This document shows positions 17,909 through 38,199 of a stretch of DNA of 64,000 nt, piece after piece. Both the position numbers and the translations under genes were made by a program. How positions within the stretch are numbered: the stretch's first letter is position 1; every line of letters begins with the position of its first letter. The stretch is from Ignavibacteria bacterium (lineage in GTDB: Bacteria > Elusimicrobiota > Endomicrobiia > PHAN01), in contig JBGFRZ010000082.1 in assembly GCA_041694835.1 (NCBI GenBank), positions 32,001 to 96,000 on the forward strand. The letters run 5' to 3'. The notes below the pieces were generated by a model. That model searched no databases and had not been told where the DNA came from. It saw only the letters and a list, made by a program, of their open reading frames with translations.

Positions 17909-19951
17909 TTATCTCTTCAACAGCGCTATCAGCCGCGACTTCGGAACGGCAAATATCTTTCCAAGTTTTTCCGAGCTTAACCATATCGTATTCCCGCTTC
18001 CTGAAAATCCGCTTATCTTGAAGTTTTTCCGGAAAGCATCGGGCAATGTATAGACGACAGAAACGCTTAATCGCTCGTCGAGTTTATGGAGATATATCTG
18101 ATTTGTAGAAGAATCGCAGCTCCACAGATTTTTCCCGTCGTGCCACACCCCCACCGGCGTCGGTCCAGGGGATTTATACGACTTCAATATCTCAAAATCT
18201 CCGGTTTCCTCGTCAAGCCGTCCGTGATAAATGAGACCCTTCGTCATATCGGTCGCAAAAACATCCCCTTTCACCATAGCGATCCCATTTAAACTCAACT
18301 CGCCGGTAGCATAGGTCTTTATGATGCTAAACGATTCGTTTATAATATGCCTGTTTATCTTTTTGCTCCACGGATTGACTGAATACAGCGCTCCGTCATC
18401 ATACGCTATGGCCGAGAAGTTGTTTTCCGGGAAATGATATATCCTCTTCAAAGAAAGTTTATCGTCGAGCATATGATGGTATACACTCCCGCTCTGCCAG
18501 TCGCAGCTCCATATGTACGAAGTGTCGAGAGCGATGGATGTTGGGAAGGAATAAGGCACATGATACTCTCTCACTCTTTCAAGGGGAATAAAAAAAGTTC
18601 TAAAATAAGCGGCCGCCATCAAAAATACAGCCAACAAGGGCAACAATATGTATCTTGTTTTTTTCTTTCCCGGGATTAGCGACAGCCAATGTTCCTCGGA
18701 AGCTATCGAACTTTCCAGTATAGCATCAATCTGTTCAGAGGCGCTCGCAGAATCAGATAAATCCGTAAAAATATGGACGGGCGGCAAATTTTTTACAGCT
18801 CTATTCAAAATGCCCACAAATATCGTCGGAACAAACGGGAGATTTTTCAACACTTTTTTGGCAACCAAGATATCGGAAGTGATTATCGCAAGCGGTTTTA
18901 TATTTTTTAAATCGCGTACCTTAAATCTGTTCAGATGAAATACCTCGGGAACTCCGATTTTTTTGGAAATATTTTCAAACCCTTTCGCTTCCCCTATAAA
19001 AACGATTTTTCTTTTTGTTTTTTTCTTTGGCTCAAACGTGAGAGTTTCAAGCGACTTTGCGTTTTCGGATATTTTTTTCGAGTAATACGAAACCTCGTCG
19101 CATGGGAGCTGTCTTTGCGTTCTTCTGTAGGCAATTAGATTTTCAACGATGGAAAGTTGATTGCTTAAATAATCATTGAAGTCATTGATCGCGCCCAAAA
19201 AATCGTTTTTGAGACTTCCTATTTCTTCGCTTGACTTCATCCTTGCGCTTTCGACATTGAATTTGAGCGATTTATTCTCCTCATTCAGCCTTTCTTTATG
19301 AGCGGCGAGAGATTCTATGGTTTCATCACGCTTCTGAATCTCACCCTTAAAACGAGAAATCTCGTTGGCAAAAGATTCTTCGACTTCGCTAAAACGTCTG
19401 TTCATCTCGGAAAGGGAGTTTTGGAGTATATTTATATTTTCGCTCAAGATACGTTTTTCTTCGGCGAAAGTTTTCTGAAACATCTCCTTCTCGCTTATGT
19501 TTTCATCTTTAAGGCGAGCCACGGTTTCGTTCAGTGTGTTTATTTTTTCGAGAAGCTGCCTTGTTTCCGATTCGGCATCCTTTATTTTTTCTTCCCAGAG
19601 TATCCTGTTTTTTTCAAGAAGCAAATCGGCCTCTTTGAGCCTGAATTTCTCCTGCCAGTCCTTGAGCTCCCTTTCAAAACTTTTCTCGAGATCCTTCAAT
19701 TTCTCTTCGTAATTTTTTAAGTTAATATCCTGCTGGCTGAGTTTGGATTCTAAAATCTTTTTTTCCTCTTCCTTCGACTGAATCCTCTTTTCCCAAAGCA
19801 TCTTTTCCTCTTCAAGACGCTTTTGCCAATAACCCGAAGAGACCGGTGACGTGAAGCGGCTTGTAAGCTCGTCTTGAATTTCGAGTTCGGATTTTAACTT
19901 TGCAAGTTCCTTCTCAAGTTCAGAATAATTTTCGTTGCGATTGTCGTCCAT
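17909..19951 (-). CDS. Coiled-coil / single TM / extracytoplasmic beta-propeller-like protein
   Basis: E/K-rich N-terminal half; TM YILLPLLAVFLMAAAYF; repeated WS(C/V)D blades; ATG 19951 follows GAGGAG. Confidence 0.75.
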   Translation of the reverse strand: MDDNRNENYSELEKELAKLKSELEIQDELTSRFTSPVSSGYWQKRLEEEKMLWEKRIQSKEEEKKILESKLSQQDINLKNYEEKLKDLEKSFERELKDWQEKFRLKEADLLLEKNRILWEEKIKDAESETRQLLEKINTLNETVARLKDENISEKEMFQKTFAEEKRILSENINILQNSLSEMNRRFSEVEESFANEISRFKGEIQKRDETIESLAAHKERLNEENKSLKFNVESARMKSSEEIGSLKNDFLGAINDFNDYLSNQLSIVENLIAYRRTQRQLPCDEVSYYSKKISENAKSLETLTFEPKKKTKRKIVFIGEAKGFENISKKIGVPEVFHLNRFKVRDLKNIKPLAIITSDILVAKKVLKNLPFVPTIFVGILNRAVKNLPPVHIFTDLSDSASASEQIDAILESSIASEEHWLSLIPGKKKTRYILLPLLAVFLMAAAYFRTFFIPLERVREYHVPYSFPTSIALDTSYIWSCDWQSGSVYHHMLDDKLSLKRIYHFPENNFSAIAYDDGALYSVNPWSKKINRHIINESFSIIKTYATGELSLNGIAMVKGDVFATDMTKGLIYHGRLDEETGDFEILKSYKSPGPTPVGVWHDGKNLWSCDSSTNQIYLHKLDERLSVSVVYTLPDAFRKNFKISGFSGSGNTIWLSSEKLGKIFAVPKSRLIALLKR

Positions 19952-20234
19952 ATTTTTTTCTCCTCGCCCCCTGATAAATACTGGGTCCATACCACCAAGT
20001 CGGAAATTAAATTTTCATTCTGCATCACAGGTGTTGGAATATTCGAACATTTGTTCGAATTTATCGTCTCACAAATTACTATGTACAAATTACCAACTAC
20101 CTGTTTTTTGCAGACCAGGGTCTCCCGCTACATCGCACTGCTTTGCTATGCCTCTACACTGCCAATAAATCGGCAACTACAATCTGTCATCCGTCATTCA
20201 TCATTTACTATTTGCTATCTACTATCTACTGATT

Positions 20235-21776
20235 TTACGGTATTATCAAAATCTCGCCGGGACGGACAATGCCTTTTTCAATTTTTTCCTTGTTCGCTTC
20301 GTAAATTTTGTTCCATTTATCTTTTGTGCCGTAATACCTCTGCGAAATCGACTGCAACGTTTCTCCGGGAAGCACCTTATGCGTTCTTGCGGCAGGTGGC
20401 GGCGGTGTTCTTTCAGGACGTCTGCGCATCTCCTCGGAAATAACAGACGGACTGGAGACCTCTACATTTAAAATATCGGTAATGTTTTTTTCGGGAGTTT
20501 TTGTAAATTCCGCCGGTGAGGGCGGGGTTGATATTAAAACCGGAATAATCTCTTTTTTCTGGACAGGCGCATAAGTGGATATTTCAGCGGTAAACTCCGT
20601 TAGAAGTAAGTCACCAGAGGCGGCCGGCCCCGATGAATATAGGGGAACTTCTAACGGGATAAATTGTTTTTCTTGCACGAGAGCGGGTTCAGGCGGTGGT
20701 ATCGGCAACTTTCTGTGTTCTTCGAATTTGACGGGATGGAATGTTTCCCGCGTTTTAACGACATCTTTTTTTCTTTCACCGAAATAAACCGAAATACCGA
20801 ACATATGACTCCCCGACATTTCAGACATACCCCCTAAAGGATACAACATCGCATAGTCGAAAGAAATATTTTTAATGTTCATTCCGAGACCCGCTGTAAT
20901 CCTCCTGTAATTATTGCTGCCAAAATTGAACCCTGTCCTCAAAACAAGTACTTCGTTTAACAATTTCTTTTCGACTCCCAAATTGACCGTCTGCCGTTCG
21001 GACGATATTACATAATCGGCGGCAAGCAGAAAATCTTTTTCCTCGTATGACGCTCCGAATACATTTCCGGCCGGTCTCTTGTATTTTTTATTATCTTCGC
21101 TTTCAATCTCCGTGTGATAACCAAATTTTATATTGCCGAACCGCAAAATAACTCCCAATGGAAAAGACATGAAATCTCTGTTATACGGTTCTCTAAATAC
21201 GGGGTCGACTTTTTGATAATTATCTCGTATGGGAATTCTTATCAAATAATTTTTGACGCCAGCGCCGACGAAAACAAAATTATGCGGGTTCCACGAAAAG
21301 TTGAGCGCATAAATTTCTTCAGAATAATAATCACCGAGGGAAAGACCGCTGTAGCCTGCGCCAAAACCGAAATTTCTAAAAGGTATTCCGAAAGAAAAAG
21401 AAGCGTTTGATATATTGCTCCTGTCATCTAGACCAATATGCAGTTTGCTGTAGCCAAACGAGAGAGTCGTATTTCTAAGAGACGAAACGCTCGATGGATT
21501 AAAAAACACAACTCCCGCATCCTCCGTCATAGAAGCCGCTGCCATACCGAGAGAACTTATGCGAGCGAAAGCAGGTTTTTCCTCGAAAGCCGCATAAAGG
21601 CAGACAATAGGCAATAGGCAGTGGGCAATAGTAAAATATAGGCAATAGGCAATAGGCAGTAGGCGGTAGTAGTTGGCGGTTGGCGATTTGTGATATGAAT
21701 AACGAGCCACAAGCCACGAGCCACGAGCCACCAATAAACTTTTAAACTCTTGAACTATCCTCTGTCTTTTATTCAT
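20235..21776 (-). CDS. PorP/SprF- or PorV-like outer-membrane beta-barrel with Pro-rich linker and C-terminal LysM
   Basis: AR..SLG.A......DA...FFNP start, alternating beta strands ending HMFGISVYFG; LysM HKVLPGETLQSISQRYYG...IYEAN...PGEILIIP; start uncertain because of heptamer repeats. Confidence 0.75.
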   Translation of the reverse strand: MNKRQRIVQEFKSLLVARGSWLVARYSYHKSPTANYYRLLPIAYCLYFTIAHCLLPIVCLYAAFEEKPAFARISSLGMAAASMTEDAGVVFFNPSSVSSLRNTTLSFGYSKLHIGLDDRSNISNASFSFGIPFRNFGFGAGYSGLSLGDYYSEEIYALNFSWNPHNFVFVGAGVKNYLIRIPIRDNYQKVDPVFREPYNRDFMSFPLGVILRFGNIKFGYHTEIESEDNKKYKRPAGNVFGASYEEKDFLLAADYVISSERQTVNLGVEKKLLNEVLVLRTGFNFGSNNYRRITAGLGMNIKNISFDYAMLYPLGGMSEMSGSHMFGISVYFGERKKDVVKTRETFHPVKFEEHRKLPIPPPEPALVQEKQFIPLEVPLYSSGPAASGDLLLTEFTAEISTYAPVQKKEIIPVLISTPPSPAEFTKTPEKNITDILNVEVSSPSVISEEMRRRPERTPPPPAARTHKVLPGETLQSISQRYYGTKDKWNKIYEANKEKIEKGIVRPGEILIIP

Positions 21777-21794
21777 TTCTATCGCCTGTCTTTT

Positions 21795-24700
21795 TTATCT
21801 CGCCACCACGACTGTGCCGTTTTTTATTTTATCTCCGACTTTCAACTGATAGATGTAAACTCCCGTCGGAAGCGCTCCGCCCGATTGTTCTTTGCCATTC
21901 CAAACCACCCATAAATCGCTCTTTTTCTCCATCTCTGCCACTTTATAGCCGCTCAAATCAAAAATCTCACCCGTGACACTTTCGGAGAAAGGATTTTCGA
22001 AAGTTACATTAAACTCATCGTTTATCCCATCGCCGTTGGGTGTGAAAACTTTCGGCCATGCGTTTAAAATTTTAAACTCCACCGCTCTTTGAAGAGAGCG
22101 AACCCTGAACTCCCCCGAGTATCTCGCATCTGCAATTAAATATGCCCCCAAATATCTCCCGCCAAGATTGACCCACTCCACTCCGTTAAACCAGAAGACA
22201 GCATAACTGGCGACTTCTGAAGGTGTCTTTGAAACTGCGGGCGACGAAGCAGTGAGGTTTTCAAGTTGAAATTTAAGAGTCAGAGGTTTTTTGAATCCAG
22301 TTTTTATCAATGCCCCTTCCCTATCCATTATTTCAACCATATACGAGAGTTTCGTCTTCTGGTCGTCGGGTGGGTTTTCTTTCTTTGTAATTTTAACGGA
22401 ATAATCCGGTCTTAAAATTTCGGGTTCAGCAACAATTTGGAATTTGCCGTTTTCCGAATGATGAATGTTTTGATTTGGTTCGCCTGCCACCAATACTGCC
22501 GATGGCTCGCCAAGGACTCCAAGTGTATTTATTGCTCTAACCATATAATAGATATTAACGTCAGAGACCAAAGCGAGTGTCAATGTGCTAGAAGATGCGG
22601 GGACAAATGCCACATGGTTAGAAGTAAACAAGTCGTCAAATCTATGGGCCACGTAAACCCTGAAGCCTGCGAGGTTTCCTGGAGAGGAACCATCTGTATT
22701 TTTAATGGGCGCAGTCCACGAAAGGACTATATCTTTTGTATTTGGGATATCAAACTTAAAGTTCGTTGGAGGCAGGGGTCTTGCTGAAGGGTTTGTATAA
22801 AAACTCCAGTCAGTTGTTGGCGTAGAGCGACTCGTTTTATCTACTGCATAAACCCGCCAGTAATAGGTGCTGTCGACCAAGAGGGTCTTATCGAGGGGGA
22901 CTTGATACGACAAAGAAGCAATATTTGAAACAACTTTTCTTGAAGAAAAATCGGGCGATGTCGAATGCCATAACTCATAAACCACAAAGTCTTCAGGGTC
23001 TGGGTCAAAAGAAGATGACCACGAGAAATTAGGCATAAGCGTTTCTATAATGGCCCCGTTGGCTGGGGAAAGCAGAGAAAACGCCGAAGGATTTTCTTCA
23101 ATTGAATTTACCTTGAAACTTAAAACACTTGACCATCTCTGATTGCCCCATATATCGCAAGCAACTGCCCTCCACCAATAAGTTCCGTTCTCTTTAAGTT
23201 CCAGGGTTATATATGAAGTGGTTGTAATTCCGACTGAAGACACAAAGACATTGAAATTTTCATAAGACGAATAATGGACATCATACCAGAATGTATCCGA
23301 TTCGGGGTCTGAACTTGGTGACCATATTAAAGTTGGCGTTCTAGTCGAAATTATCCCTGATGGACTAACAGGAACAAAAGGGTTTGGTGGCAGATTGACT
23401 GCAATAAAACTTCGCGATAGTGTATCTGTTGAACCCGTAAGTGTTGAATGCGCCGTAACATACCAGTAATATGTCGTGTTGTTGGACAGGTCACTTTGAA
23501 ATGTATATGAGGTAATATATATCGGAGAAATCTGAGTTTTAATGGCAAAAAGCGAATTCGTGGAATAAGTCAGAGTGTAATAATACACATAATCATAAGG
23601 GTCAGGGTCTGTTGTTTCCTGCCACAAAAGAGTGGGCTTGAGATAACTATAAAAAGAGCCATCCAGTGGCGAAAGCAGAGAAAAAGCTTTTGGATTTTCT
23701 GAAGTTGCATCAACTATAAAAAACCAGGTTGAGGAATGCGTCATGGCATTAAAGGAATCAATAGCAATAACATACCACCAATATGTAGTGTTTTCATTTA
23801 GCGATGTAGTGACCGAAAAAGGTGGGGAACTAATTCCGACTGAAGAGACAAAAATAGAGAAATTTGAGACGGAAGAATAAAAGATGGAGTAGGTGACGGT
23901 GTCCCCATCCGGATCGATTGCACTTTGCCAACTTAAAGACAGCGTCTGGGTTCTAATTATTCCCGAAGATGCGAGCAAATTGAAACTGCCCGGCGGAAAA
24001 TTTACCGCTTTTACCGTAAAACTTGAAATTTCCGATTGCGTCGTCAGGTTATCCGGAGACGACCTTGCGACAACTCTCCACCAATACACCGCATCTTCCT
24101 GTAAATCTATCAATTGATAGTAGGTGGTGAGTATATCGAAAATGACTGGCGGGGCTGGAGTGGCTGTGGTTGAAGAGTAAGAAATTCCGTAATATACAGT
24201 ATTGCCGGGGTCTAAATCAATAGCGATGCTCCATCGAAGTGTCGGTGATGATGTAAAAATCATTGTGCCGCCCGTGGGCCAGAGAAGTGAAAATGGCTGA
24301 GGCGGTTCATTCACAGTATTTAATCTAAAACTGCCGGTTGACGACGAAACGGTTTCGCGGCCCGTCGTGTCTCTTGCATGAACCTTCCAGAAATACCTGG
24401 CGTTTTCAGTTAAATTCCACCACGGCGACCAGGATAACTGATTAATGCCCGACACTCTGGTAGAAACATTTGATTCAAAACTGATAGATGTAGAAATATA
24501 AACATTATAAACAACAAAATCTGCAGGGTCAGGGTCGGAAGAAGCGTTCCACCAAAGCGTCGGCTGAAGGGTACCGGTTTCTATGGTGTCATTTATCGGC
24601 TGAATAAGCGAAAAAGCCGTCGGCGATTCGCTCGTCGCATTTACAACAAACTGAGGGGTGCCGGTTACTCCCAATGAAAGTAGTCCTTCTGAATCCCTCG

Positions 24701-25433
24701 CATAGACACGCCAGTAGTATGTCGTGTTTTCGTTTAGCGCGGGGGTTGTCCAATTTGTCTGGGTTATATTCTCCACAACGCTTTTTGGCGAAAAATTGCT
24801 TGCGGTTGAATACCAAAGGATGTAACTCGTTATACTGTCGCCGTAGATATTGTCTGTGCCGACAGGAAATCCACCGGCATTTGTCACATCGCCCCATGCC
24901 AGAAAGACCAATGAAGAAAAAACAACTGTTGTCGGGGTTCCTGTGTAGTTGTAGCCACTTACATTCCCAGGTGAGTTGTTCTGAGTCGCCGACTGGGGCT
25001 CAGGACTTGAAGTGTCAAGCAGCGACCAGTTGATGTTGTCCGTCGAAGATTTTATCGCAAAAAAATATGTTATATTATTTACAAGAGATGAAACGACTCT
25101 CATCTCCGAGTTGCTGGAAGAAGTTGAAGTCGAAAATTTTATCCTGTAGGGGTAAGAAATCGATGTGGAGTTGTTTGTCCAGTCGGCTTCTGCGACTATT
25201 ACCCGGTAACTCGAAACTCTTACCTCGTACCATTGAGGCGCTCCTTCCGGCCCACCTGGAGCTGTCCATTGAAGGGTTATGTGTCTGAAGCCGCTTGATC
25301 TTATTGAGAGATCGGTGACCTGATTTGGAACAGCGTTCAGGGTCGTTAATCCAAATAAAAAAAGTATCGTCGGCCAAAAAAAACGAACGGGGCGAAACTT
25401 ATCGATATCCGACAGTTTTGTCCGATGTTTCAT
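21795..25433 (-). CDS. Large secreted Fn3-like repeat protein with gliding-motility/T9SS type-B-like C-terminal domain
   Basis: Signal peptide; about 7-8 repeats of ~100 aa (F.LL.P...PTL.W....DPD...L.EN.TYYW.V.A); C-terminal VFTPNGDGIND...IFD..G...WNG...LPTGVYIY. Confidence 0.8.
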   Translation of the reverse strand: MKHRTKLSDIDKFRPVRFFWPTILFLFGLTTLNAVPNQVTDLSIRSSGFRHITLQWTAPGGPEGAPQWYEVRVSSYRVIVAEADWTNNSTSISYPYRIKFSTSTSSSNSEMRVVSSLVNNITYFFAIKSSTDNINWSLLDTSSPEPQSATQNNSPGNVSGYNYTGTPTTVVFSSLVFLAWGDVTNAGGFPVGTDNIYGDSITSYILWYSTASNFSPKSVVENITQTNWTTPALNENTTYYWRVYARDSEGLLSLGVTGTPQFVVNATSESPTAFSLIQPINDTIETGTLQPTLWWNASSDPDPADFVVYNVYISTSISFESNVSTRVSGINQLSWSPWWNLTENARYFWKVHARDTTGRETVSSSTGSFRLNTVNEPPQPFSLLWPTGGTMIFTSSPTLRWSIAIDLDPGNTVYYGISYSSTTATPAPPVIFDILTTYYQLIDLQEDAVYWWRVVARSSPDNLTTQSEISSFTVKAVNFPPGSFNLLASSGIIRTQTLSLSWQSAIDPDGDTVTYSIFYSSVSNFSIFVSSVGISSPPFSVTTSLNENTTYWWYVIAIDSFNAMTHSSTWFFIVDATSENPKAFSLLSPLDGSFYSYLKPTLLWQETTDPDPYDYVYYYTLTYSTNSLFAIKTQISPIYITSYTFQSDLSNNTTYYWYVTAHSTLTGSTDTLSRSFIAVNLPPNPFVPVSPSGIISTRTPTLIWSPSSDPESDTFWYDVHYSSYENFNVFVSSVGITTTSYITLELKENGTYWWRAVACDIWGNQRWSSVLSFKVNSIEENPSAFSLLSPANGAIIETLMPNFSWSSSFDPDPEDFVVYELWHSTSPDFSSRKVVSNIASLSYQVPLDKTLLVDSTYYWRVYAVDKTSRSTPTTDWSFYTNPSARPLPPTNFKFDIPNTKDIVLSWTAPIKNTDGSSPGNLAGFRVYVAHRFDDLFTSNHVAFVPASSSTLTLALVSDVNIYYMVRAINTLGVLGEPSAVLVAGEPNQNIHHSENGKFQIVAEPEILRPDYSVKITKKENPPDDQKTKLSYMVEIMDREGALIKTGFKKPLTLKFQLENLTASSPAVSKTPSEVASYAVFWFNGVEWVNLGGRYLGAYLIADARYSGEFRVRSLQRAVEFKILNAWPKVFTPNGDGINDEFNVTFENPFSESVTGEIFDLSGYKVAEMEKKSDLWVVWNGKEQSGGALPTGVYIYQLKVGDKIKNGTVVVAR

Positions 25434-29006: not shown

Positions 29007-32000
29007 TTTTCCCTCCTGATTTGTTATTTATCTTGTTTGTTAATTCCTTCTCAAAGCTAATCAGATTCTCGTTTTTAGGTTCTATGGATATCGCCTTTTT
29101 TATCGCCATAAGAGCGTCATCCAGTTTGTCTGTGTTATAAAAGCATAAGGACATATACTGCTGTGCTTCCGCGCTGGATGGATTATTCCGAGTGAACTCC
29201 CTCAGTATTTCCAAAGACTCGGAGTAACTGCCTTGTTCGCAAAGTTCTACGGCTCTTTTCAAAAGCATCGGTCTGACTTCTTTTGGTGTCTGTCCATAAG
29301 AAACCATCTTTCCCATAAAGTCGTCGGCGAATTTCTTAAGATTTTCCCTCATCTCCCGTCGACGAATGCTTTCTGCCATTATTTCTTTTGTAGTCATTTG
29401 CATACCGGCCTCGAGCACATCGAGTTGATTCATCTTAAGTTCAAGCAGTTTTGTGAATCTATCTTTTTCCGACATTATAGAGTTTTCAAGTTCTGATATT
29501 TCCCGAACCATAGAGATAAGTTCGGTGTTTTTATCCTCATAAAGCTTTAACTGAGCGGATATCTCCGGAGAATCCTTCATATAAGAGGCTCCCGCATCCG
29601 CAAGCTCTTTTCTTAAATTCTCTATGGCTTGAGATGAGAGTTTATGCTGCGACTTATTCTTATCGATTGTCTCTTCCAGAACTCCTTTTAGTTCATCAAT
29701 ATATTTTTGGAGCTCTTCTCCGCGCTTTTTTGTTTCATTTTGCAGACGCTCATTTCTCAACTCAAGTCGTTTTGAGAGGGTGGTTATCTTTTCTTCTTCC
29801 ATATAGATTTTGTTTTTAGACTCTGACAAATAATCGTTGTATTTCCTGAGAAGTTCCGTCAAATCTTTTTCGAGCTTTTTCAAGAGGTTCTTGCTTTTTT
29901 TCTCATGCCTCAATCGCGCAGTCTCGAACTCGGACTTCGAAAGTGCCACTTTGAGTTTTCTGGATTCTATTTCCTTTTCAATCTCTCCGATTATCTTTGC
30001 CGAAGAGTTCTCGCTTTCTTTCAACTTACTTTCCCAAAGATTCACTTCGGCGAGGAGCGTTTCTCTCTCTTTAAGAAGCTTCGCTTCCTGAAGGACCCAT
30101 TCGGATTCGAGGCGATTTTTTTCATCGTCATATTTTGCCTCTAGTTCTCTTTGCGTTTTTATTTTCCCGGAAATCGTTTCCCCGGTTTCCTTCTTTAACT
30201 TTTCCATTTCAGACGACAACTTTTCCATCTCTCGCTCGATCTTTTCTTTCTCGGCGAGGTGTTCTTTCGTTATTCGTTGCTCTTCGTCGGTCACATAGGA
30301 TTCCCATGTTGTTATTTTGTTTCCGAGCTCTTTCATCTCTTCTTCTTTTTGCGATTTTAAATTGCTCCAGTAATCGCCTTGCTCTCTGATAGTCTTTTGA
30401 AGAGTTGATATCTGCTCTTCAAGTCTTTTATTCGTATCAGTCCAGGTTGTCTCTTTATTCTTTAGTTCATTTTTTGTCTGTTCAAGAGATGCCTGTGATT
30501 TATTGATGAACGCATTCAGCTCGCTCGTCTTGGAGCAAAGCGCGGTTTTGCCCGCATTCTGAACTTCCAAAAAGTTGTTTTGGAGCATCGTCAGTTCTTC
30601 GGCCAGAACTTTTCTCTCGTTTTCATAATTTTCGTTTTGCTTTTTTTCCTCCTCGTGCCATGATTTTTCTCTTAAAGCCATCTGCGTCTTCAGGACATAA
30701 AGTTGCCTGTCCAGAATCCTTACTTCATCGCGATTCGTTCCGACTAGAGCTTTTAGCTTATGTTCTAACTCATCCCTCTTCCTATCAAGCGAATGTTTCT
30801 CGGCGGCATAATTCTGTGATGAGTTTTCAAACTTTGTTTTCATTTCATCTTCCAATACTTTTAGATTCTGCTGTCCAACTTTCAGTTTTTCTTCAACTTC
30901 GGATAACTCTTGCTCCTGCTTGATTTTTATGGCTTTCATCTGGTTTTCAAGATTTTCTTTCCTTTTTTCAATTCTTTTGACGAACTGCTCATGCGATTGA
31001 AAATATGAATCTCTATTTTTTGTGTAATTATCCTCCTGTTCCTTCAATTTCGCATTTAGTTCCTGAATCTGCTGCTGCCTTGTGGCAACCATCCCCGGAT
31101 GTTTTTCTTCCAACTGCGCAAGTTCCATTTCATTCGATGTAATTTTGGAAATCAGCAGTTCTTTGACTTTATTAAACTCGCTTTCCATATGATTCAACCT
31201 GGCTTTATACTCCTGTTCAAACCTCAAGTGGTCCGACTTAAGCTTTTCAATTTCACGCTTTTTCTCCGCCAGCAACTCCGCATGGCGGGATTTCATCTCT
31301 TCCGATTCATTTTCAATCTTTTCTATTTCCTCATTTATGAGCTTTTTTTCATTTTCATTTTCTAACTCAAGAATTTTTATTTCTTTTTCATATTTGTGAA
31401 TGTTGGTTTCACGAGATGCGTTTAAAAAAGTTATCTTGTTATCGAACTCTATTAAGATATCAGCATGTTTTTTTCTTGTTTCATCAAGTTTTTTTGAAGA
31501 TTCTTCGAGTTTTTTTCTGACCAACTCAAGCTCCGCGCTTATTATGCTCTCCTTTTCTTCTATCTCATATTTATTTGCCGAAATTAAATCATTCACTTTT
31601 TTACTTATCGCTTGTATATGTCTTTCGGACTCCGAAATTTCACTTTCGCATTTTTCTTTAAAAAAATTAAACCCGACTTTCGTCCTTTCAAGCGACTCTA
31701 TCGCTATCTTCTTCTTGCCTTCAAGTTCAAAGCGGGTGGCGTCCAAATTTTTTTGTAACACCGCTGTCTTTTCCAAAAGAACTTTTTCTAACTGATTGTT
31801 CTCATCGTTTTTCGCGCTTACGGTCTCATCAAATCTCTTTTGTTCTGAAATCACCACACTATTCAATTCCTCTATTTTAGCCTCAATACTTCCTTTTTCT
31901 TCTTTTAGTTTTACATTAAAACTTTCAAGCGCAAGAGAATGATTTTTCTTTTCATCTTCCATCTTTTGCATCAAAGACTGATGGACATTTTCAAGTTCCT

Positions 32001-33846
32001 TCATGTTTTTTGAATGTTCTTTTTCAAGCGATATTTTTTGAGAGTCAATCTCGTCTATGTCGGCCTTTATTGAATCGATTTCGGCCGAGAGTTTATCGAC
32101 TGACTGATGGTATCTACTTTCAAGCATATTTTCCTGATGGGCAAAACGTTGCTTCAAACTTAAATAATCTCTTTCCTTTTCTGCCATCTTCTGCTTAAAA
32201 TCCATCTCAAGACGCGCTTTTTTACTTTCAGCGACCTTCAGCTTTTCTTTATAAGGTTCAACTTCCACAAAAAGTTTCTTTTTAGCGTTCTCAAAAGACC
32301 TGGTGCTTTCCAAAAGTTCCGCTTCCACTGAATTTTTTGCGGCTTCAACCTGGGATTTCTTTTGAGAAAGAAGTGAAGAGTACTCCGTCTTTATTTTCGA
32401 AAAATCTTCCTGGAACTTTTGATATTTATCCTCGATGAGTTTTTTCTCCTCGGAAAGAATTTCAATTTGATGTTTATGTTGAAGATTCTTCTGTTCCTGG
32501 TTCGATTGCCAATCGTTTTTGAACTTTTCCATCTCTTCGTACTTTCCGGAGAGTTCACTTTGATATTCTATTTTCTGGTTCAAAACTTCTTTTTCAAGAT
32601 CAGTACATCTCAAAGAGATTCTCTTTTTTTCATTTTCAATATTTGTTTTGTATTTTTCTATTTCTGCGTTTTTCTCCCTTATCTTTATTTGAGCCTGGAT
32701 TTTAATGTCTTCTATATCCTGATCCGCGACTCTTATCATATTCTCCCATTCGGATTTTTCCTGCTCATATTTCTGATGAAGCTCCTTGAGCTGTTTTTCA
32801 GCCAGAGATTTTGCCTCTTTGAACTCGTTGAAACGTTTTTCGCGAGCGGAACTTTCCTGCGTTTCCTGAAGCATCATGTCAATTTTTAGTTTATTGAAAG
32901 CATCTTCCCTCTCTTTCAATAGTTTCTCGTATTTCTCCTTTTCGGAAAGCGACTCCCTTTCCATCTCACTCATCTGAGCCACTAACTTTTCTTTTAAATC
33001 CTTAAGCAATATCTTTTTCGCATTCAGTTCCTGCTCATATATTATCTGACGCTGTTTCAAAGCCGAGCTGAATGCAAGCAATCCCTCTTTTTTATCGTTA
33101 TAAATTTTCTGGAAGTTTGCTCTCATTTCGGAAAGATTTTTTTCAACACCATTCAACTGATTATTGTAATTGCCTTCTAATTCTTTTTTCTCCCGATGAA
33201 ATTTTTCCTCTTCCTGCCGGGACTGGTTGACTCTGAGGGATATCTGTGCTTTTAATGCCACGATTTCCTCTTCCCTGCCTTTCAGTCTTGTTACAAATTC
33301 CCCTATTTCCTGCTGTGCTTTTTTCTCGAAGGCAAGAAGCTGACTTTCTATCTCTCTTAATTCCTGAGTGGATGAAATTATCTCTTTTTCATCTTCGGCT
33401 TTTTTTTCGTTTTCCCTGGTTTGCAAATTTACTTTTGTTTCGTCTATCTCGGTTATGATAGCTCTGATTTTTTGACCCCACTCTTTATCCTCTTCTTCTA
33501 TCTTGCGCTCAACCCTTTGCAGTTCGTCATTCCATTTTTTTCTAAGCGAATTTATCGAGTCCTGATGAAGTTGCATGTTGTTTGAAAGTTCGAGTTCAAC
33601 AAGTTCAAGATGGATGGAAAGTTTTATTTTTTCATCTTCTTTCTCTTTTTCTTTCTTCCTGTAATTTTCCCGCTCAACTTCGAGCATCTTTTCTATGTTT
33701 TCAAGTTGCTCACGCGCCGTTTTTTTTATGCTTTGTAAATCATGGCTGGCGGTAAGCTCTATCTTTTTCTCGTCGCACTCAATATCCGATGTCGCTTTTT
33801 TTTCGGCGACTGGTTCCTCTTTGTGTTTGATTAGCCACTTCCACAT
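28996..33846 (-). CDS. Giant coiled-coil protein with 61-residue periodicity and C-terminal TPR
   Basis: 1616 aa; 61-aa register counted by hand; C-terminal TPR (AVELCEQGSYSES...NPSSAEAQQYM...AISIEPKN); GGAGG upstream of the start. Confidence 0.85.
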   Translation of the reverse strand: MWKWLIKHKEEPVAEKKATSDIECDEKKIELTASHDLQSIKKTAREQLENIEKMLEVERENYRKKEKEKEDEKIKLSIHLELVELELSNNMQLHQDSINSLRKKWNDELQRVERKIEEEDKEWGQKIRAIITEIDETKVNLQTRENEKKAEDEKEIISSTQELREIESQLLAFEKKAQQEIGEFVTRLKGREEEIVALKAQISLRVNQSRQEEEKFHREKKELEGNYNNQLNGVEKNLSEMRANFQKIYNDKKEGLLAFSSALKQRQIIYEQELNAKKILLKDLKEKLVAQMSEMERESLSEKEKYEKLLKEREDAFNKLKIDMMLQETQESSAREKRFNEFKEAKSLAEKQLKELHQKYEQEKSEWENMIRVADQDIEDIKIQAQIKIREKNAEIEKYKTNIENEKKRISLRCTDLEKEVLNQKIEYQSELSGKYEEMEKFKNDWQSNQEQKNLQHKHQIEILSEEKKLIEDKYQKFQEDFSKIKTEYSSLLSQKKSQVEAAKNSVEAELLESTRSFENAKKKLFVEVEPYKEKLKVAESKKARLEMDFKQKMAEKERDYLSLKQRFAHQENMLESRYHQSVDKLSAEIDSIKADIDEIDSQKISLEKEHSKNMKELENVHQSLMQKMEDEKKNHSLALESFNVKLKEEKGSIEAKIEELNSVVISEQKRFDETVSAKNDENNQLEKVLLEKTAVLQKNLDATRFELEGKKKIAIESLERTKVGFNFFKEKCESEISESERHIQAISKKVNDLISANKYEIEEKESIISAELELVRKKLEESSKKLDETRKKHADILIEFDNKITFLNASRETNIHKYEKEIKILELENENEKKLINEEIEKIENESEEMKSRHAELLAEKKREIEKLKSDHLRFEQEYKARLNHMESEFNKVKELLISKITSNEMELAQLEEKHPGMVATRQQQIQELNAKLKEQEDNYTKNRDSYFQSHEQFVKRIEKRKENLENQMKAIKIKQEQELSEVEEKLKVGQQNLKVLEDEMKTKFENSSQNYAAEKHSLDRKRDELEHKLKALVGTNRDEVRILDRQLYVLKTQMALREKSWHEEEKKQNENYENERKVLAEELTMLQNNFLEVQNAGKTALCSKTSELNAFINKSQASLEQTKNELKNKETTWTDTNKRLEEQISTLQKTIREQGDYWSNLKSQKEEEMKELGNKITTWESYVTDEEQRITKEHLAEKEKIEREMEKLSSEMEKLKKETGETISGKIKTQRELEAKYDDEKNRLESEWVLQEAKLLKERETLLAEVNLWESKLKESENSSAKIIGEIEKEIESRKLKVALSKSEFETARLRHEKKSKNLLKKLEKDLTELLRKYNDYLSESKNKIYMEEEKITTLSKRLELRNERLQNETKKRGEELQKYIDELKGVLEETIDKNKSQHKLSSQAIENLRKELADAGASYMKDSPEISAQLKLYEDKNTELISMVREISELENSIMSEKDRFTKLLELKMNQLDVLEAGMQMTTKEIMAESIRRREMRENLKKFADDFMGKMVSYGQTPKEVRPMLLKRAVELCEQGSYSESLEILREFTRNNPSSAEAQQYMSLCFYNTDKLDDALMAIKKAISIEPKNENLISFEKELTNKINNKSGGKNGR

Positions 33847-33861
33847 ATTATTCCTCCGCTT

Positions 33862-35676
33862 TTATTTTCTTGATGCCTCGAGTTTTATCTGTTCAATAAA
33901 GTTTGACAGCTCCGTGTCATTTGGGTTTATGTTTAACACCGCTTCATAATTTGCAATCGCTTCGTCATATCTTCCGAGAGCATAATATGAAGCGGCAATA
34001 TAACTGTAGGCGTCGGTCAAAGTGTTGTCGATTGAAAGGACGTACTCAAGATAGCTTATGGCATCCTCATAGTTTCCCGCTTCATAACTGGAGAGTCCTG
34101 CCTGATAGTAATCCGCAGCGTCACCTTCCGAAGGAGCGGCTTCTTCGTCAACAACCTCTTCACCCTCAAGAGCGCTGCTTTTCGGCTTTTCTCTTATAAA
34201 GATTTTACCGTCATCTTCAAGTTTTCTTATGACATCCATTATTTTCTTTCTTCCTTCTTCTGTCTGTAACGGCGTTACGGATTGGGTGTACTGCATTTCT
34301 TCTTGAATAAGTTGGACCGCGTTAGACGACATGTTGGCAAAAAACTTATTTACCACATCCTGAGGCACTCCTTTGAGTGAGCGGGCAAGAAGTTCCGAAT
34401 TTTTCAAATCTGGAAAGTTAAGTATTGTCTGCATCGTCTGATCCGTGAAGTTCTTAATGTCATCAAACTTCAATATAAACTTTCTGACCCTGTCGTAGAG
34501 TTCCGGTTTTTCGTTCTGTAGATAATCCAGTATGTTGTCCCTTGTTACGTTGTCAACCTGATCAAGCACTTTCAAAAGATGCTCTATGCCGCCTATTAGG
34601 AAGTCTATCTTTTCTTTTATGTCGTCGTCTATCTTCATTACCTTATCCCTCGTCATCTGTCTTATGGTCGCCATCTCTATGGCCACCTGCGACTGAACCT
34701 GCGCCGAAAGGCTGAGAAGTATCTCTTTGACATGCTCGGGTTTAAGATAACTTATTACGAGAGCTATTATTCTTGCGCTTTCTTTCCTTATTAAATATAT
34801 AAGTCTTTTAAGATTTTCGTCATCTACATAGTGAAACGGTTTGTACTTTTTTTTCTCCTCTTCCAGCGCTTCAAGCTCAGCCGCAGAAAGAGCGCCGCCT
34901 CCGCCTCCTCCTTCACCGCCTTCTGGCTCCCCCTCGGGGTTTTCGAATTTTGAATCCACGGTAACTTCTGTTCCGCCCTTTTCCCTCATCGTTTTTACAT
35001 ATGCACGGAAAAAGCCAGCAAGAGGACCGAAAAGAAAAAATAAAAGAAGAAATGCTATAACAAGAGGTATCAAAACAAGCGGCTTCAGCAGCTCTTCAAA
35101 AAATCCCGTCGTGAATTTTGTTTTCTTAAAATCTATCCGGTCACCGCGCTTTTGATCTATTCTGAGAGCGGAAGTAATAGCATCTTTTACGGCTTCAAGT
35201 TTCGACTCGGGAACTTTTTCATCGTGCAAAACAGTCACTATCTGTTTTTTCAGAGCAATTTTGACCTCGACAGTTATTTTTTCCTGCTGGCCGGCCTCTT
35301 CTTTCGATTCGCCGACTTGATCCGCTTGAGAAACCGCTCTGGGCGCCGGAACACCCGGCAGCAGATACTCCACCTCGCCTATCGGCTTCTTTTTTTCGGC
35401 CTTTCTTTCCCTGACGAAGGTTTTTCTGGTTATCGTATCAAGACCGAATTCGACATCGACTATGGCTATCGCTTTATCCGGTCCAAGTATCCTGTCAAGG
35501 ATGTCTTTCTGAACGTACTCCGTCTTTTCTTTTTCGTACTTGAGTTCATGTTCTATCAGTGAGATTTCCGCAGACTGCGGGGTCATCTGTCCATAAAGAT
35601 AAACAAAAGAAGAAAGAGCCAGTAAAAGTGCCACCGCGCTTTGTTTCAAATTTTTAAGCTGTTTTAATTTTTTCAT
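33862..35676 (-). CDS. FliF C-terminal ring-domain / TM / FliG middle+C-terminal / TPR fusion protein
   Basis: Signal peptide; ILDRILGPDKAIAIVDVEF and VTVLHD...ITSALRIDQKRGDRIDF (FliF RBM3-like); one TM; IALVISYL, GGIE, PELYDRVR, LARSLKG, FFANMS and IRKLEDDGKI (FliG-like); two TPRs. Confidence 0.8.
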   Translation of the reverse strand: MKKLKQLKNLKQSAVALLLALSSFVYLYGQMTPQSAEISLIEHELKYEKEKTEYVQKDILDRILGPDKAIAIVDVEFGLDTITRKTFVRERKAEKKKPIGEVEYLLPGVPAPRAVSQADQVGESKEEAGQQEKITVEVKIALKKQIVTVLHDEKVPESKLEAVKDAITSALRIDQKRGDRIDFKKTKFTTGFFEELLKPLVLIPLVIAFLLLFFLFGPLAGFFRAYVKTMREKGGTEVTVDSKFENPEGEPEGGEGGGGGGALSAAELEALEEEKKKYKPFHYVDDENLKRLIYLIRKESARIIALVISYLKPEHVKEILLSLSAQVQSQVAIEMATIRQMTRDKVMKIDDDIKEKIDFLIGGIEHLLKVLDQVDNVTRDNILDYLQNEKPELYDRVRKFILKFDDIKNFTDQTMQTILNFPDLKNSELLARSLKGVPQDVVNKFFANMSSNAVQLIQEEMQYTQSVTPLQTEEGRKKIMDVIRKLEDDGKIFIREKPKSSALEGEEVVDEEAAPSEGDAADYYQAGLSSYEAGNYEDAISYLEYVLSIDNTLTDAYSYIAASYYALGRYDEAIANYEAVLNINPNDTELSNFIEQIKLEASRK

Positions 35677-35687
35677 ATATTTACCCT

Positions 35688-37322
35688 TTATCTAAGTTGG
35701 TTCAGGAACTGCGGAACCACTCTGTTTGTTGGATCTATTTCGAGCACCCGCATCCAGACCTCTTTTGCTTTTTCCGGCTGATCCATCATAAAGAAAGCGC
35801 TTCCCATAATTTCGTAAGCTGTCACATGGTTCGGTTCAAGATTCAGCACTTCCTGGGCTTTAATAAGGGCTTTGTCATATTTGCCGTCTATTATGGCTTG
35901 TCTTGCGTCGAAGATCTTCTGATCTATTATAGTAAATCCTGCGATTGTTTCCTTGAATGCTTCCGTAGGCGGGATGCCCATTTCTTTTTCAATCCTGTTC
36001 AACAAAGCAAGTAGCTTCATGTTCTCGGGTTTTTTGTAATAAGCATATCTGAAAGAGTTTATGGCGCCCGTGTCGTCGCCTTCTATATATGCTACAATCC
36101 CTTTTCTTGTCGCTACGGCATCTTCAGTATCTCCTACCACAGTGTCTATGTGACCTATTATTACCTGTAGTTTTTTGGACATATTCTGTGCATCTTTATT
36201 GGCCGGGTCTATATCAAGAAGTTTTTCAAGTCGATTGTGGGAAAGAAGCATGTCTCCTTTTCTGTAGGATTCTATAGCTTCTTTCATAAGACGCACCACT
36301 ATAGCCGCTCTGTTAGCGCTTACCGATTCCCCTATTTTCCACGAACCGGATATTCTATGTGAAAGTCCGAGCTCATGCAAAGCAAACGCATAATCAAGCC
36401 CGTAATCTTTATATTTGAAACCAAAACCAGCGGTTGTCTCTCTTATTCTACCTTCGCCCTCGAATCCGAGACGCATGGCAAGATAATTCATAAGCCAGTA
36501 TTCTGTCCCTATGTGCCAGCCGAGATTTGCGTTAAGCGATTTTTCAATATCAAACGCCAGTAAAAACTTTTTTTTCATAAACGGATGGGCCGCGCCGACT
36601 CTGAATATCATAGGAAGTTTGTCTTCCGTATCGCCAAAGCTCGTAGAAATTATGTTCCTGACACCGAAAGCAATTTTTATATCGGGCAACGTGTCATTTA
36701 CTCCTTCAAGGAGCAGCGCAAGATCGAATGTTAGGGCTCCGCTTATAGAATCGGCCAGAGCATGGTTCATGTACTTCCCAGAAAGACCTATGGAGAGATT
36801 TTCTCTTATTCTTCTGCCGTATGCTGCCATTAAAGCCAGACGGGAATCTTCAAATGTGCCTAAATTTTCAATCTTAACTATGTCCTGTGTAGTTGGGTCT
36901 ATGTTTATCGCTATTTTTTCAAAACCGCCCGAGTGGAGACGGACGATGTTTGCTCCGAAAACTCCCAACTTTGCGGTTGGATGCACATACGACAGAAAGT
37001 TATAGTTGGTATCGGCAAAAAGCGTGGCATGGAGAGCCATAACTTCTTTCCTGTCAAGCTGGGTCAGAGCTGCCGGATTCCAGTAAGTAGCGGAGGCATC
37101 GTCGGAAACCGCGAAAAACGCTTTTCCCATACCAAGTGATTTAGCGCCAGCACCCCATGAAAGGAACTGCCCAGGCTGGCCGCCGGTGGCAGCGGCAAAG
37201 ACAGAGGATAGCGGCGAGAGACAAGAGACGAGAGAACAAATAAAAACAAAAGCCATCCCTGACAAAGTTTTTGCGACTTTGTTCGCTAGTTTTGTCGAGA
37301 GTTTTGTTTTTGAATTTTTCAT
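35688..37322 (-). CDS. PorV/PorQ-like (FadL-type) outer-membrane barrel with C-terminal TPRs
   Basis: FLSWGAGAKSLGMGKAFFAVSDDASATYWNPAAL, LPMIFRVG, GTEYW and LDYAF...HRIS motifs; several TPRs. Confidence 0.8.
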   Translation of the reverse strand: MKNSKTKLSTKLANKVAKTLSGMAFVFICSLVSCLSPLSSVFAAATGGQPGQFLSWGAGAKSLGMGKAFFAVSDDASATYWNPAALTQLDRKEVMALHATLFADTNYNFLSYVHPTAKLGVFGANIVRLHSGGFEKIAINIDPTTQDIVKIENLGTFEDSRLALMAAYGRRIRENLSIGLSGKYMNHALADSISGALTFDLALLLEGVNDTLPDIKIAFGVRNIISTSFGDTEDKLPMIFRVGAAHPFMKKKFLLAFDIEKSLNANLGWHIGTEYWLMNYLAMRLGFEGEGRIRETTAGFGFKYKDYGLDYAFALHELGLSHRISGSWKIGESVSANRAAIVVRLMKEAIESYRKGDMLLSHNRLEKLLDIDPANKDAQNMSKKLQVIIGHIDTVVGDTEDAVATRKGIVAYIEGDDTGAINSFRYAYYKKPENMKLLALLNRIEKEMGIPPTEAFKETIAGFTIIDQKIFDARQAIIDGKYDKALIKAQEVLNLEPNHVTAYEIMGSAFFMMDQPEKAKEVWMRVLEIDPTNRVVPQFLNQLR

Positions 37323-37358
37323 TTCATCAAACCCTGTCCTCTACTCTCTCCTCCGCTT

Positions 37359-37727
37359 TTAATGTATGACTCCAATTTTTCTTAAAGCCACTATCTTCCC
37401 GCCATCGACGGAAACCACACAGATATATCCGCCCTTGGCGACGTAATGACCGTTTTCGTCGCGACCGTCCCACAGGATTGTATCTCCAAAAAATTCGAGA
37501 TGCTTGACGGGGCGGCCAAAAAGATCGAAAATTTTTACCGCAATTCCAACGTCGGTCTGATTTGATTTTTTTACAAGGATGCTTGTGGAAGTTTTTCTCG
37601 AATCGAACGGATTGGGATAGTTTGAAAGAAATATGTCAGAAGATGATGCGACGGATGCCGTCAACAAAAGAATTGATGAGGCGAAAGGGATAAGTAAAAG
37701 ATAATTTAAAAAGTTGATGTGCTTCAT
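37359..37727 (-). CDS. Small secreted protein consisting of one T9SS-CTD / FlgD-Ig-like domain
   Basis: Signal peptide, then NYPNPF...KIFDLFGRPVK...WDGRDENG..V..GGY. Confidence 0.75.
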   Translation of the reverse strand: MKHINFLNYLLLIPFASSILLLTASVASSSDIFLSNYPNPFDSRKTSTSILVKKSNQTDVGIAVKIFDLFGRPVKHLEFFGDTILWDGRDENGHYVAKGGYICVVSVDGGKIVALRKIGVIH

Positions 37728-37734
37728 AAATTGC

Positions 37735-37873
37735 CTTCGGTAACCCGGCCGCCATAATCTCGCATTTTGCTTGATGTTAGGCCCGTATCCTGACCTATAG
37801 TCAGAATGACCCGATTCAACATCGGGATCGGCTTTGCGTCCTCCGGTTTCCCGGAGTTTGCCATTTATCGGAC
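37735..37873 (-). ncRNA. Cyclic di-GMP-I (GEMM) riboswitch, downstream copy
   Basis: GATAAATGGCAAAC-TCCGG-GAAA-CCGGA-GGACGCAAAGCC...GGGCCTAA...TATGGCGGCCGGGTTACCGAA, ending about 8 nt before the start codon. Confidence 0.85.
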
Positions 37874-37916
37874 AATCCTTACGTTTCCATCTCCGCCACG
37901 GCGGAAGGGGGCTATC

Positions 37917-37953
37917 AAAATAAAAATGCTACCGAACTTCCGCCCGGTAGCAT
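37917..37953 (-). terminator. Intrinsic terminator between the two riboswitches
   Basis: ATGCTACCG-N10-CGGTAGCAT followed by TTTTATTTT. Confidence 0.7.
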
Positions 37954-38030
37954 AAAGATAGGGGGTCCTAAAACTTGTTGCAAACCACTACAACCGCAAC
38001 CGCTAACAAATTAAACTTACTACACCTTCT

Positions 38031-38165
38031 CTCGGTAGCCCGGCCAGCTCCCCCGACATTATGTCGGGGGCATCGCTCCGATTTCCCGAAACGATTTTGA
38101 TAGCCCCCTATCTTTAGCTCCGCGGCTTTGCGTCCTCCGGTTTCCCGAAGTTTGCCTTTATCGCA
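38031..38165 (-). ncRNA. Cyclic di-GMP-I (GEMM) riboswitch, upstream copy
   Basis: GATAAAGGCAAAC-TTCGG-GAAA-CCGGA-GGACGCAAAGCCGCGGAGCTAAA...GCTGGCCGGGCTACCGA. Confidence 0.82.
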
Positions 38166-38167
38166 AT

Positions 38168-38199
38168 ATATATATAATAAAATTTATGACATTTGTCAA
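38168..38199 (-). promoter_or_regulatory. Putative promoter of the riboswitch leader
   Basis: TTGACA at 38199-38194 followed by an AT-only -10 region just before riboswitch 1; exact -10 register ambiguous. Confidence 0.55.

Follow-up and report, generated by a model that had tools for sequence, protein, structure and literature searches.

We describe here a nine-gene cluster in DNA of an uncultured member of the Elusimicrobiota that appears to specify a hitherto undescribed, envelope-spanning motor. The stretch analysed (64,000 nt; GenBank assembly GCA_041694835.1, contig JBGFRZ010000082.1, positions 32,001 to 96,000 of the forward strand) is called the window, and coordinates without a prefix are those of the window. 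The nine open reading frames (ORFs), named g1 to g9, all lie on the minus strand between 17909 and 37727 and specify proteins of 122, 544, 604, 1616, 1015, 183, 1212, 513 and 693 amino acids (aa), respectively. The third, g3, reads as a fusion of parts of two flagellar rotor proteins, FliF and FliG. We lean towards the explanation that most components of a machine crossing the envelope are specified by this operon and that the machine reuses the torque-generating core of the flagellum without the flagellum, i.e., an ion-driven rotor and stator coupled to outer-membrane barrels that hold adhesins with a C-terminal domain (CTD) of the kind known from the type IX secretion system (T9SS). A first-pass annotation of the window had already proposed one non-flagellar, ring-based apparatus. 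The conserved gene order and the missing flagellum reported below sustain that proposal, whereas the likely stator genes, which it had not noticed, are located on another contig.

The putative FliF-FliG fusion protein

The product of g3 (33862..35676, minus strand) starts with a hydrophobic signal anchor, followed by some 160 periplasmic residues (~35-191), a strong hydrophobic segment (191-227) read as transmembrane (TM), a Gly-rich linker, the FliG middle and C-terminal domains (FliG_M and FliG_C) and a tetratricopeptide repeat (TPR) region. FliG_C (86.2 bits) and FliG_M (49.9 bits) are both over their Pfam cut-offs and TPR is also matched, while YscJ_FliF_C scores 23.6 bits with a cut-off of 23.8. 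FliG_M and FliG_C pass the cut-offs in all 23 g3-family members; YscJ_FliF_C is weakly matched in nine of them. Residues 278-495 align with the FliG of T. maritima (PDB 1lkv; E 2.7e-30). When a profile of the 23 family members was compared by hhalign with a profile of FliF from four flagellated Elusimicrobiota, residues 35-191 corresponded to FliF residues 225-383, the RBM3 region, with a probability of 93.8% (E 1.7e-7). The first-pass annotation had called g3 a FliF-FliG-TPR fusion, and so it reads: a cut-down FliF (RBM3-like domain and TM segment) fused to a FliG that lacks the N domain, with an extra TPR at the end.

In a tree of the FliG middle and C-terminal region (calculated without the Clostridia locus L055, a doubtful ORF pick), all 19 fusion-type sequences constitute one clade (support 100/99) separate from the ordinary FliGs, which suggests a single origin for the fusion-type FliG domains; the g3-type sequences form a sub-clade within it (95/94). 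Of 115 g3 homologues, the best 108 (E <= 2.9e-80) match g3 in length and domains, and every source name that gives a taxon is Elusimicrobia, Elusimicrobiota or Endomicrobi-. More than 20 families keep the fusion architecture, and among the 50 best full-length matches 49 are free of internal stops. One relative (L041:9851-11771) carries the g3 orthologue as two overlapping ORFs of 476 and 165 aa, which may reflect a frameshift or an assembly error.

The torque helix of the g3-type proteins has the form NMSxGAxxLLKEEMEY. The counterparts of D288/D289 in E. coli FliG are EE, and that of K264 is K or R. We also predicted the complex of the g2 tail (residues 330-544) with the periplasmic domain of g3 (31-192); the scores obtained (0.17 and 0.14, with a mark of 0.32) speak neither for nor against binding.

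Stator genes in a genome without flagellar matches

The host genome (Elusimicrobiota, Endomicrobiia) measures 1.9 Mb in 89 contigs and is 97% complete; carriage of the operon by a cultured strain is not known to us. A complete flagellum elsewhere in this genome, with g3 as its ordinary FliF/FliG, had been set beforehand as a check on the idea of a non-flagellar machine. Searches of the host genome for FlhA (PF00771), flagellin (PF00669) and the N-terminal ring domains of FliF (PF01514) returned no match, and FliM/FliN (PF01052) was matched in none of three genomes of the host family. The FlhA, flagellin and FliM/FliN models were each positive in four control genomes, and ordinary FliF frames of 521-527 aa occur in four flagellated genomes of the phylum. 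None of the four flagellar markers is thus matched in a nearly complete genome, so that g3 is not an ordinary FliF/FliG, and the idea survives this check.

The host genome encodes five proteins of the MotA/ExbB family, two of which are of the flagellar type. On contig C54, a gene for FlbD (E 2.3e-26) stands directly before MotA, which is followed by MotB. The other flagellar-type MotA belongs to a paralogous module on contig C81 (L017:209-17209), comprising a 2278-aa BNR/fn3 CTD protein, a PorV-TPR barrel, a FliG fusion without TPR, MotA and two MotB. The C81 MotA aligns from end to end with flagellar MotA and PomA in PDB (E 1.5e-52 and 1.8e-43, respectively); the scores with the NCBIfam MotA equivalog models, ~205 bits, are under the cut-offs. 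An acidic residue is found within a few positions of the counterparts of PomA E96/E97 in 13 out of 13 aligned MotAs, and the counterparts of PomA R88/K89 are KK, KR, RA or RT. The MotB proteins carry the plug and the OmpA domain. MotB of C54 and the first of the two on C81 have the channel Asp, whereas the second on C81 (L017:12911-13615) has Asn at this position. In the C81-like (c3-type) loci with two MotB, the first one always has Asp, while the second has Asn (host genome, L048) or Ser (L050) in three of six and Asp in the three others; this second MotB may be a non-conducting paralogue.

From these predictions, the operon alone would be incomplete as a machine, and its likely stator is the C54 FlbD-MotA-MotB set. 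The latter (L060:5973-12208) follows an N-acetylmuramoyl-L-alanine amidase gene and two genes for family-less proteins of 473 and 463 aa, for which no match was obtained in the seven related operon regions searched. The C81 module is interrupted by two genes for four-helix bundles of the "23S rRNA intervening sequence" kind (117 and 127 aa), which stand between the others.

Conserved linkage and co-distribution with MotA

With a pattern scan using one genome per species, we collected 37 loci, i.e., 36 from Elusimicrobiota or unnamed metagenome-assembled genomes and one from Clostridia with an ordinary FliG. Of the 33 assessable loci, 32 have the gene for the PorV-like barrel with TPR on the upstream side of the FliG fusion, and in 31 it is directly adjacent. 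A g1-like CTD gene precedes g2 in 22 of 27 g3-type loci. The gene order g1-g2-g3-g4-g5-g7-g8-g9 recurs in three genomes of three families (G061, G117 and G175), variant orders occur in G149 and G071, and the contig of G004 shows only g1 to g5. Conservation of gene order among relatives was the second check on the idea, which is not refuted by what we found.

Both MotA and MotB are encoded inside the fetched flank of 11 of the 36 loci. In G078, the order is g1-g2-g3-g5-like-MotA-MotB, and the MotA encoded there is 61% identical to the C54 MotA and 36% to the C81 MotA. By their coordinates, the g3-type gene and MotA are at most 8 kb apart on the same strand in at least 19 sampled genomes. The MotAs cognate to g3 form one clade (support 97/99), grouping weakly with the flagellar MotAs of the phylum (84/58). 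On the strength of this clade and of the identity with the G078 protein, we identify the C54 stator as the orthologue of the MotAB pair that sits inside the operon in other classes.

The phylum was sampled with 201 genomes, in which the fusion profile and MotA were scored at E <= 1e-20 and tallied from the match tables. The fusion is present in 70 genomes and MotA in 73: 69 have both, one has the fusion alone, four have MotA alone and 127 have neither, counts which overstate the support that co-distribution lends, since related genomes are not independent. FlhA was found in five of the 201 genomes, and 64 genomes combine the fusion and MotA without FlhA. In two large families of small genomes, MotA is absent from all members sampled (0/64 and 0/58); at the same threshold, the fusion profile is matched in one genome of the first (G121).

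Outer-membrane barrels and CTD proteins

The intergenic gaps from g1 to g8 are 36, 11, 15, -11, -23, -4 and 18 nt. The nine co-oriented genes, the first eight of them overlapping or closely spaced, are where the first-pass annotation had put them; the gap ahead of g9, for which it gave ~280 nt, measures 244 nt.

The first gene, g1 (37359..37727, minus strand, as are all following features), encodes hardly more than a signal peptide followed by an Ig domain that resembles T9SS-type CTDs, and its 122-aa product is predicted to be secreted. Giant surface proteins end in ~100 aa that share 40-48% identity with this product. The first-pass annotation took g1 for a stand-alone CTD: the signal peptide and the CTD-like domain bear this out, whereas TIGR04183 (T9SS CTD) is weakly matched and stays under its cut-off (21.9 bits vs. 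23). The g2 product (35688..37322) was described as a PorV-like barrel with TPR, which the match to NF033709 (PorV/PorQ family; 140.5 bits, cut-off 90) corroborates; it has a predicted signal peptide and a C-terminal TPR extension, and falls short of the equivalog models for PorV and for PorQ.

Gene g7 (21795..25433) specifies a 1212-aa, predicted secreted, adhesin-like protein of Ig/fn3 repeats. Its designation as an Fn3-repeat protein with a type-B CTD agrees with the CHU_C match (45.1 bits, cut-off 27); the fn3 and Ig_Rha78A_N families are also matched, and TIGR04131 reaches 34.6 bits with a cut-off of 35. Directly after this type-B CTD gene, and in the same placement in six other loci, is g8 (20235..21776), a predicted PorP/SprF- or PorV-like barrel with LysM at the C-terminus. 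Of the earlier reading of g8 as PorP-like barrel-LysM, the LysM part is over the cut-off (23.8 bits, 20.9), while the barrel is borderline: PorP_SprF 21.8 bits (cut-off 22.3), TIGR03519 16.5 (90.55) and PorV_fam 44.7 (90).

The barrels and CTDs thus fit the T9SS likeness drawn by the first-pass annotation, whereas searches for other T9SS components gave no specific match. For GldL and GldM (TIGR03513, TIGR03517), the host genome yielded none, a weak blank as the control genomes were equally silent. PorU (NF033707) was matched only via its C-terminal CTD part, at 19 places; some 19 places in the host genome encode a CTD-like tail. GldK (TIGR03525) gave only weak matches, far under the cut-off, in a 306-aa frame whose product is read as a generic protein resembling sulfatase-modifying enzymes. 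On contig C72, beside LptF/G, a 1697-aa protein (L061:4157-9250; 1713-aa frame) showed four collinear segments of TIGR04189 (SprA) with E from 2.8e-15 to 3.8e-6, while its score stays under the 200-bit cut-off. It had no sequence match in Pfam or PDB, and may represent a giant barrel distantly similar to SprA. We found it in 177 of the 201 genomes, those of the two large families without rotor and MotA being included, so that its presence is independent of the motor; near-universal in the phylum, it was rejected as a part of the machine.

Coiled-coil proteins

The E/K-rich products of g4 (28996..33846; 1616 aa), g5 (25959..29006; 1015 aa) and g6 (25430..25981; 183 aa) match no family. As neither a signal peptide nor a TM segment is predicted in any of them, we take them to be cytoplasmic coiled coils, not the periplasmic rods of the cell envelope that the first-pass annotation had seen in the giant ones. 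The g4 protein has a weak C-terminal TPR (1530-1588) resembling that of g3, and the TPR profile of g3 matches the C-termini of frames of 1640-2111 aa that adjoin g3 in four other genomes; rotor and giant coiled coil would thus have one module in common. The g3-family profile recognises such a terminal TPR, with E of ~1e-16 to 1e-18, in the giant coiled coils beside g3 at G167:C31, G117:C1, G003:C86, G004:C61 and L020:11942-18253.

The g5 protein consists of a Pro-rich N-terminus, a highly conserved, charged helical segment of ~130 aa and a variable coiled coil. For its conserved N-terminal part, a language-model atlas and a PDB profile search returned generic coiled-coil look-alikes only. We found g4 in 14 loci and g5 in 20, the latter including those in which MotAB comes after g5.

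The last gene, g9 (17909..19990), is also the last of the cluster in G061, G117, G175 and G149. It encodes a predicted cytoplasmic coiled coil (~1-445), one TM segment (447-470) and a domain of ~220 aa outside the membrane. It had been annotated as coiled-coil/TM/propeller: coiled coil and TM segment were recovered, whereas the C-terminal domain is propeller-like by language-model features only, a lead.

Leader with two c-di-GMP aptamers

The first-pass annotation placed a promoter and two riboswitches for cyclic di-GMP (c-di-GMP) upstream of g1, and both aptamers reach the Rfam gathering scores. The sigma-70-like promoter, TTGACA-N17-TATATA (38165..38199), is a match to the consensus read from the sequence, and a consensus scan flags overlapping hexamers at 38192-38165. 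The first c-di-GMP-I aptamer (38030..38165) is of the GGC variant (RF03167, 60 bits, gathering score 59), and RF01051 scores 64 bits at the same site. The second (37736..37872; RF01051, 45.2 bits, gathering score 35) stops 8 nt before the start codon of g1, with AAGG inside its 3' end. Between both aptamers, there is a terminator-like hairpin of 12 pairs followed by a T tract (37926..37953), which appears when the full leader is folded and when the downstream segment is folded alone. Folding also suggests that part of an aptamer pairs over a long range with the nucleotides immediately ahead of the terminator, and the folds fit neither an ON nor an OFF switch decisively. We propose that the two aptamers gate the expression of the operon.

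The tandem pair upstream of g1 is kept in six of six Endomicrobiales loci tested; across the 14 loci tested, six have the tandem pair and two a single aptamer. The host genome has four RF01051 sites, two in the leader and two more (C89:21237-21319 and C28:36641-36816). The C28 aptamer lies ~5 kb upstream, on the same strand, of a CTD match that ends a 1690-aa frame.

Relation to known systems

The literature searched, from which subscription journals were outside, yielded no description of such a system, in line with the novelty supposed by the first-pass annotation, apart from a remark in one preprint (10.1101/2022.07.08.499144). In its available portion, homologues of motAB, flbD and fliG are noted in free-living Elusimicrobiota without flagellar structural genes, their role being called unclear, and symbiotic and free-living members contrast in these genes as they do in our phylum sample. 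A figure legend gives flagellar genes as absent in Elusimicrobia (PMC7031533). The accessible parts of two further articles mention no Elusimicrobia (PMC12505986) and no FliG (PMC12204202), respectively.

The nearest relation is the core of the flagellar motor, i.e., the FliF MS-ring, FliG, MotA5B2 and FlbD/SwrD. Shared with it are FliG_M and FliG_C, the RBM3-like domain of FliF, full-length alignment with flagellar MotA/PomA, the plug, OmpA domain and channel Asp of MotB, FlbD and the acidic pair of the torque helix. The differences are that FliF and FliG parts are in one chain, lacking RBM1/2 and FliG_N and with a TPR tail added, in a fusion family that forms a separate clade; that FlhA, flagellin, the FliF N-domain and FliM/N are not matched; that the R281/R297 counterparts are lost; and that the neighbouring genes specify outer-membrane barrels, CTD proteins and coiled coils. 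A FliF-FliG chain from Salmonella (PDB 8z4d, [quoted passage not shown]) likewise has M-ring and FliG in one polypeptide and matches g3 residues 293-494 (E 2.1e-12). That chain has 945 residues and belongs to a complete flagellum, whereas g3 is natural, cut down to 604 residues and without a flagellum.

The T9SS/gliding apparatus of Bacteroidota has the GldLM/PorLM motor, PorV, and SprB with SprF/PorP. Our operon resembles it in the PorV-family barrel, the A-like and B-type CTDs, the order of a type-B CTD gene and a PorP/SprF-like barrel gene, and an ion-driven motor of the 5:2 type that we presume to power outer-membrane events. It differs in that a FliG ring driven by MotAB would serve as the motor instead of GldLM, in that GldL, GldM, PorU and GldK were not found and the SprA likeness is weak and does not track the motor, in the TPR or LysM extensions of the barrels, and in the phylum. 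The Agl-Glt system of Myxococcus, set beside the operon by its description, is alike in concept, in that its surface motility depends on a Mot/Tol-type motor together with barrels in the outer membrane, TPR proteins and a coiled-coil protein of giant size in the cytoplasm. It differs in having neither a FliG nor a FliF-like rotor and no CTD/PorV parts.

Proposed mechanism and alternative explanations

In the machine that we favour, g3 would form an inner-membrane ring, with a ring of RBM3-like domains on its periplasmic side and FliG_M and FliG_C facing the cytoplasm. Stators of the flagellar type, built from the C54 FlbD-MotA-MotB set, would turn or push this ring by ion flow. The ring would be tied to the outer-membrane barrels g2 (PorV-like, with periplasmic TPR) and g8 (PorP-like, with LysM), which would hold two CTD-bearing surface proteins, g1 and g7, the latter being adhesin-like. 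Instead of a C-ring, the coiled coils of the cytoplasm (g4 and g5), together with the bitopic g9, may provide a scaffold or track, while the two c-di-GMP aptamers would gate expression. The output would likely be deployment, tensioning or movement of adhesins, i.e., adhesion or gliding-type motility.

Several points weigh against this mechanism. The contacts it proposes are deduced from sequence alone, and the operon encodes no rod, export gate or other known torque carrier across the periplasm. The stator genes of the host genome lie outside the operon, unlinked to it. In the 37 fusion sequences that span the stretch, the counterparts of E. coli FliG R281/R297 are never basic (G/N/S and T), and the counterpart of PomA E96 is Q in most MotAs, so that the classical charge pairing of FliG and stator would be only half kept. 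The order or presence of g7 to g9 varies among families, and g6 has neither a match nor room in G061, a genome of the same family, i.e., it is unconserved even within the family. An aptamer for c-di-GMP was found in just eight of the 14 related loci tested and in none of the other six; moreover, C81 has no such aptamer and none of the four RF01051 sites of the host genome is on C54. The non-independence of related genomes also has to be set against the co-distribution with MotA.

Part of this would be expected if the operon were a set of separate modules that c-di-GMP turns on jointly: an adhesin and its outer-membrane anchor (g7-g8), a CTD ligand and the PorV-like barrel that binds it (g1-g2), and coiled coils of a cytoskeletal nature, with g3 as a static membrane scaffold whose FliG fold is no longer torqued. 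The unlinked stator and the loss of half of the classical charged torque-helix residues fit such an arrangement, as do g7 and g8, which agree with the known pairing of type-B CTD proteins with PorP/SprF-like barrels and which move or drop out among families. We nevertheless hold it to be unlikely, because the linkage of g2 and g3 is nearly invariant (32/33 loci), the fusion and the flagellar-type MotA have the same phyletic pattern (69 genomes with both, five discordant, 127 with neither) and MotAB is inside the operon in other classes. Moreover, a static scaffold would not account for the persistence of FlbD and of the plug and channel Asp of MotB in 64 genomes without FlhA.

Another possibility is that rotor and stator replace GldLM/PorLM, powering a reduced T9SS-like export, or the surface attachment, of CTD proteins via PorV/PorP-like barrels. 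It would account for a genome with some 19 CTD-like tails, yet without a specific match for GldL, GldM, PorU or GldK, and would make sense of the PorV-family and PorP-like barrels that flank the rotor gene and of the four collinear, weak SprA matches in the 1697-aa protein. The latter protein, however, scores under the cut-off and is found in 177 of the 201 genomes, motor-less families included, and the GldL/GldM blanks count for little as the controls were silent. As it overlaps with the machine we favour, from which it differs in output alone, we judge it quite unlikely as an explanation of its own. That the genes would be decaying leftovers of a lost flagellum, devoid of present function, is very unlikely: a few Elusimicrobiota are indeed flagellated (FlhA in 5/201, with ordinary FliF and FliG) and the g3-cognate MotAs group weakly with the flagellar ones of the phylum (84/58), but the frames are full length (49/50 without internal stop), the architecture is kept in more than 20 families with conserved neighbours recruited, and the fusion family stands as a separate clade, within which there are two old types of paralogue.

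It is conceivable, though we would call it doubtful, that Elusimicrobiota hold, in addition to the flagellum, a machine of a third kind based on the rotor and stator of the flagellum, in which an ion-driven fusion ring turned by MotAB spins or drags barrels carrying giant CTD adhesins, as a new mode of surface motility or adhesin deployment switched by c-di-GMP. If so, one rotor protein, FlbD and MotAB would constitute a natural minimal motor, and torque generation, perhaps also how the flagellar motor arose, would become accessible to study in the absence of type III export. To our knowledge, FliG and MotAB as a working pair are known solely from the flagellum. Here, both are kept in at least 64 sampled genomes without the flagellar export gate, linked to barrels of the type that holds surface proteins in Bacteroidota. 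If the motor works, the flagellar torque core would be a portable module and a second power source for outer-membrane events besides GldLM, with a much simpler rotor for structural and mechanistic study. It would also explain how free-living Elusimicrobiota could move or attach, e.g., the magnetotactic members reported without flagella in the available portion of the preprint (10.1101/2022.07.08.499144).

Spacer and neighbouring genes

The 244-nt spacer between g8 and g9 (19991..20234) opens with purine-rich, 7-nt repeats (AGTAGAT-like), and no terminator-like site was seen when looked for in it. Unrelated genes flank the operon, with panC on the upstream side and a DUF4416 gene and SMC on the downstream side. 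In c3-type loci, the gene of ~880 aa that comes after MotB was considered and set aside, as it encodes DNA polymerase I, which is unrelated to the machine. Inside two related rotor loci, there are genes for sensor histidine kinases (HAMP-HisKA-HATPase or HATPase alone), at L050:1763-3229 and L045:16947-17897.

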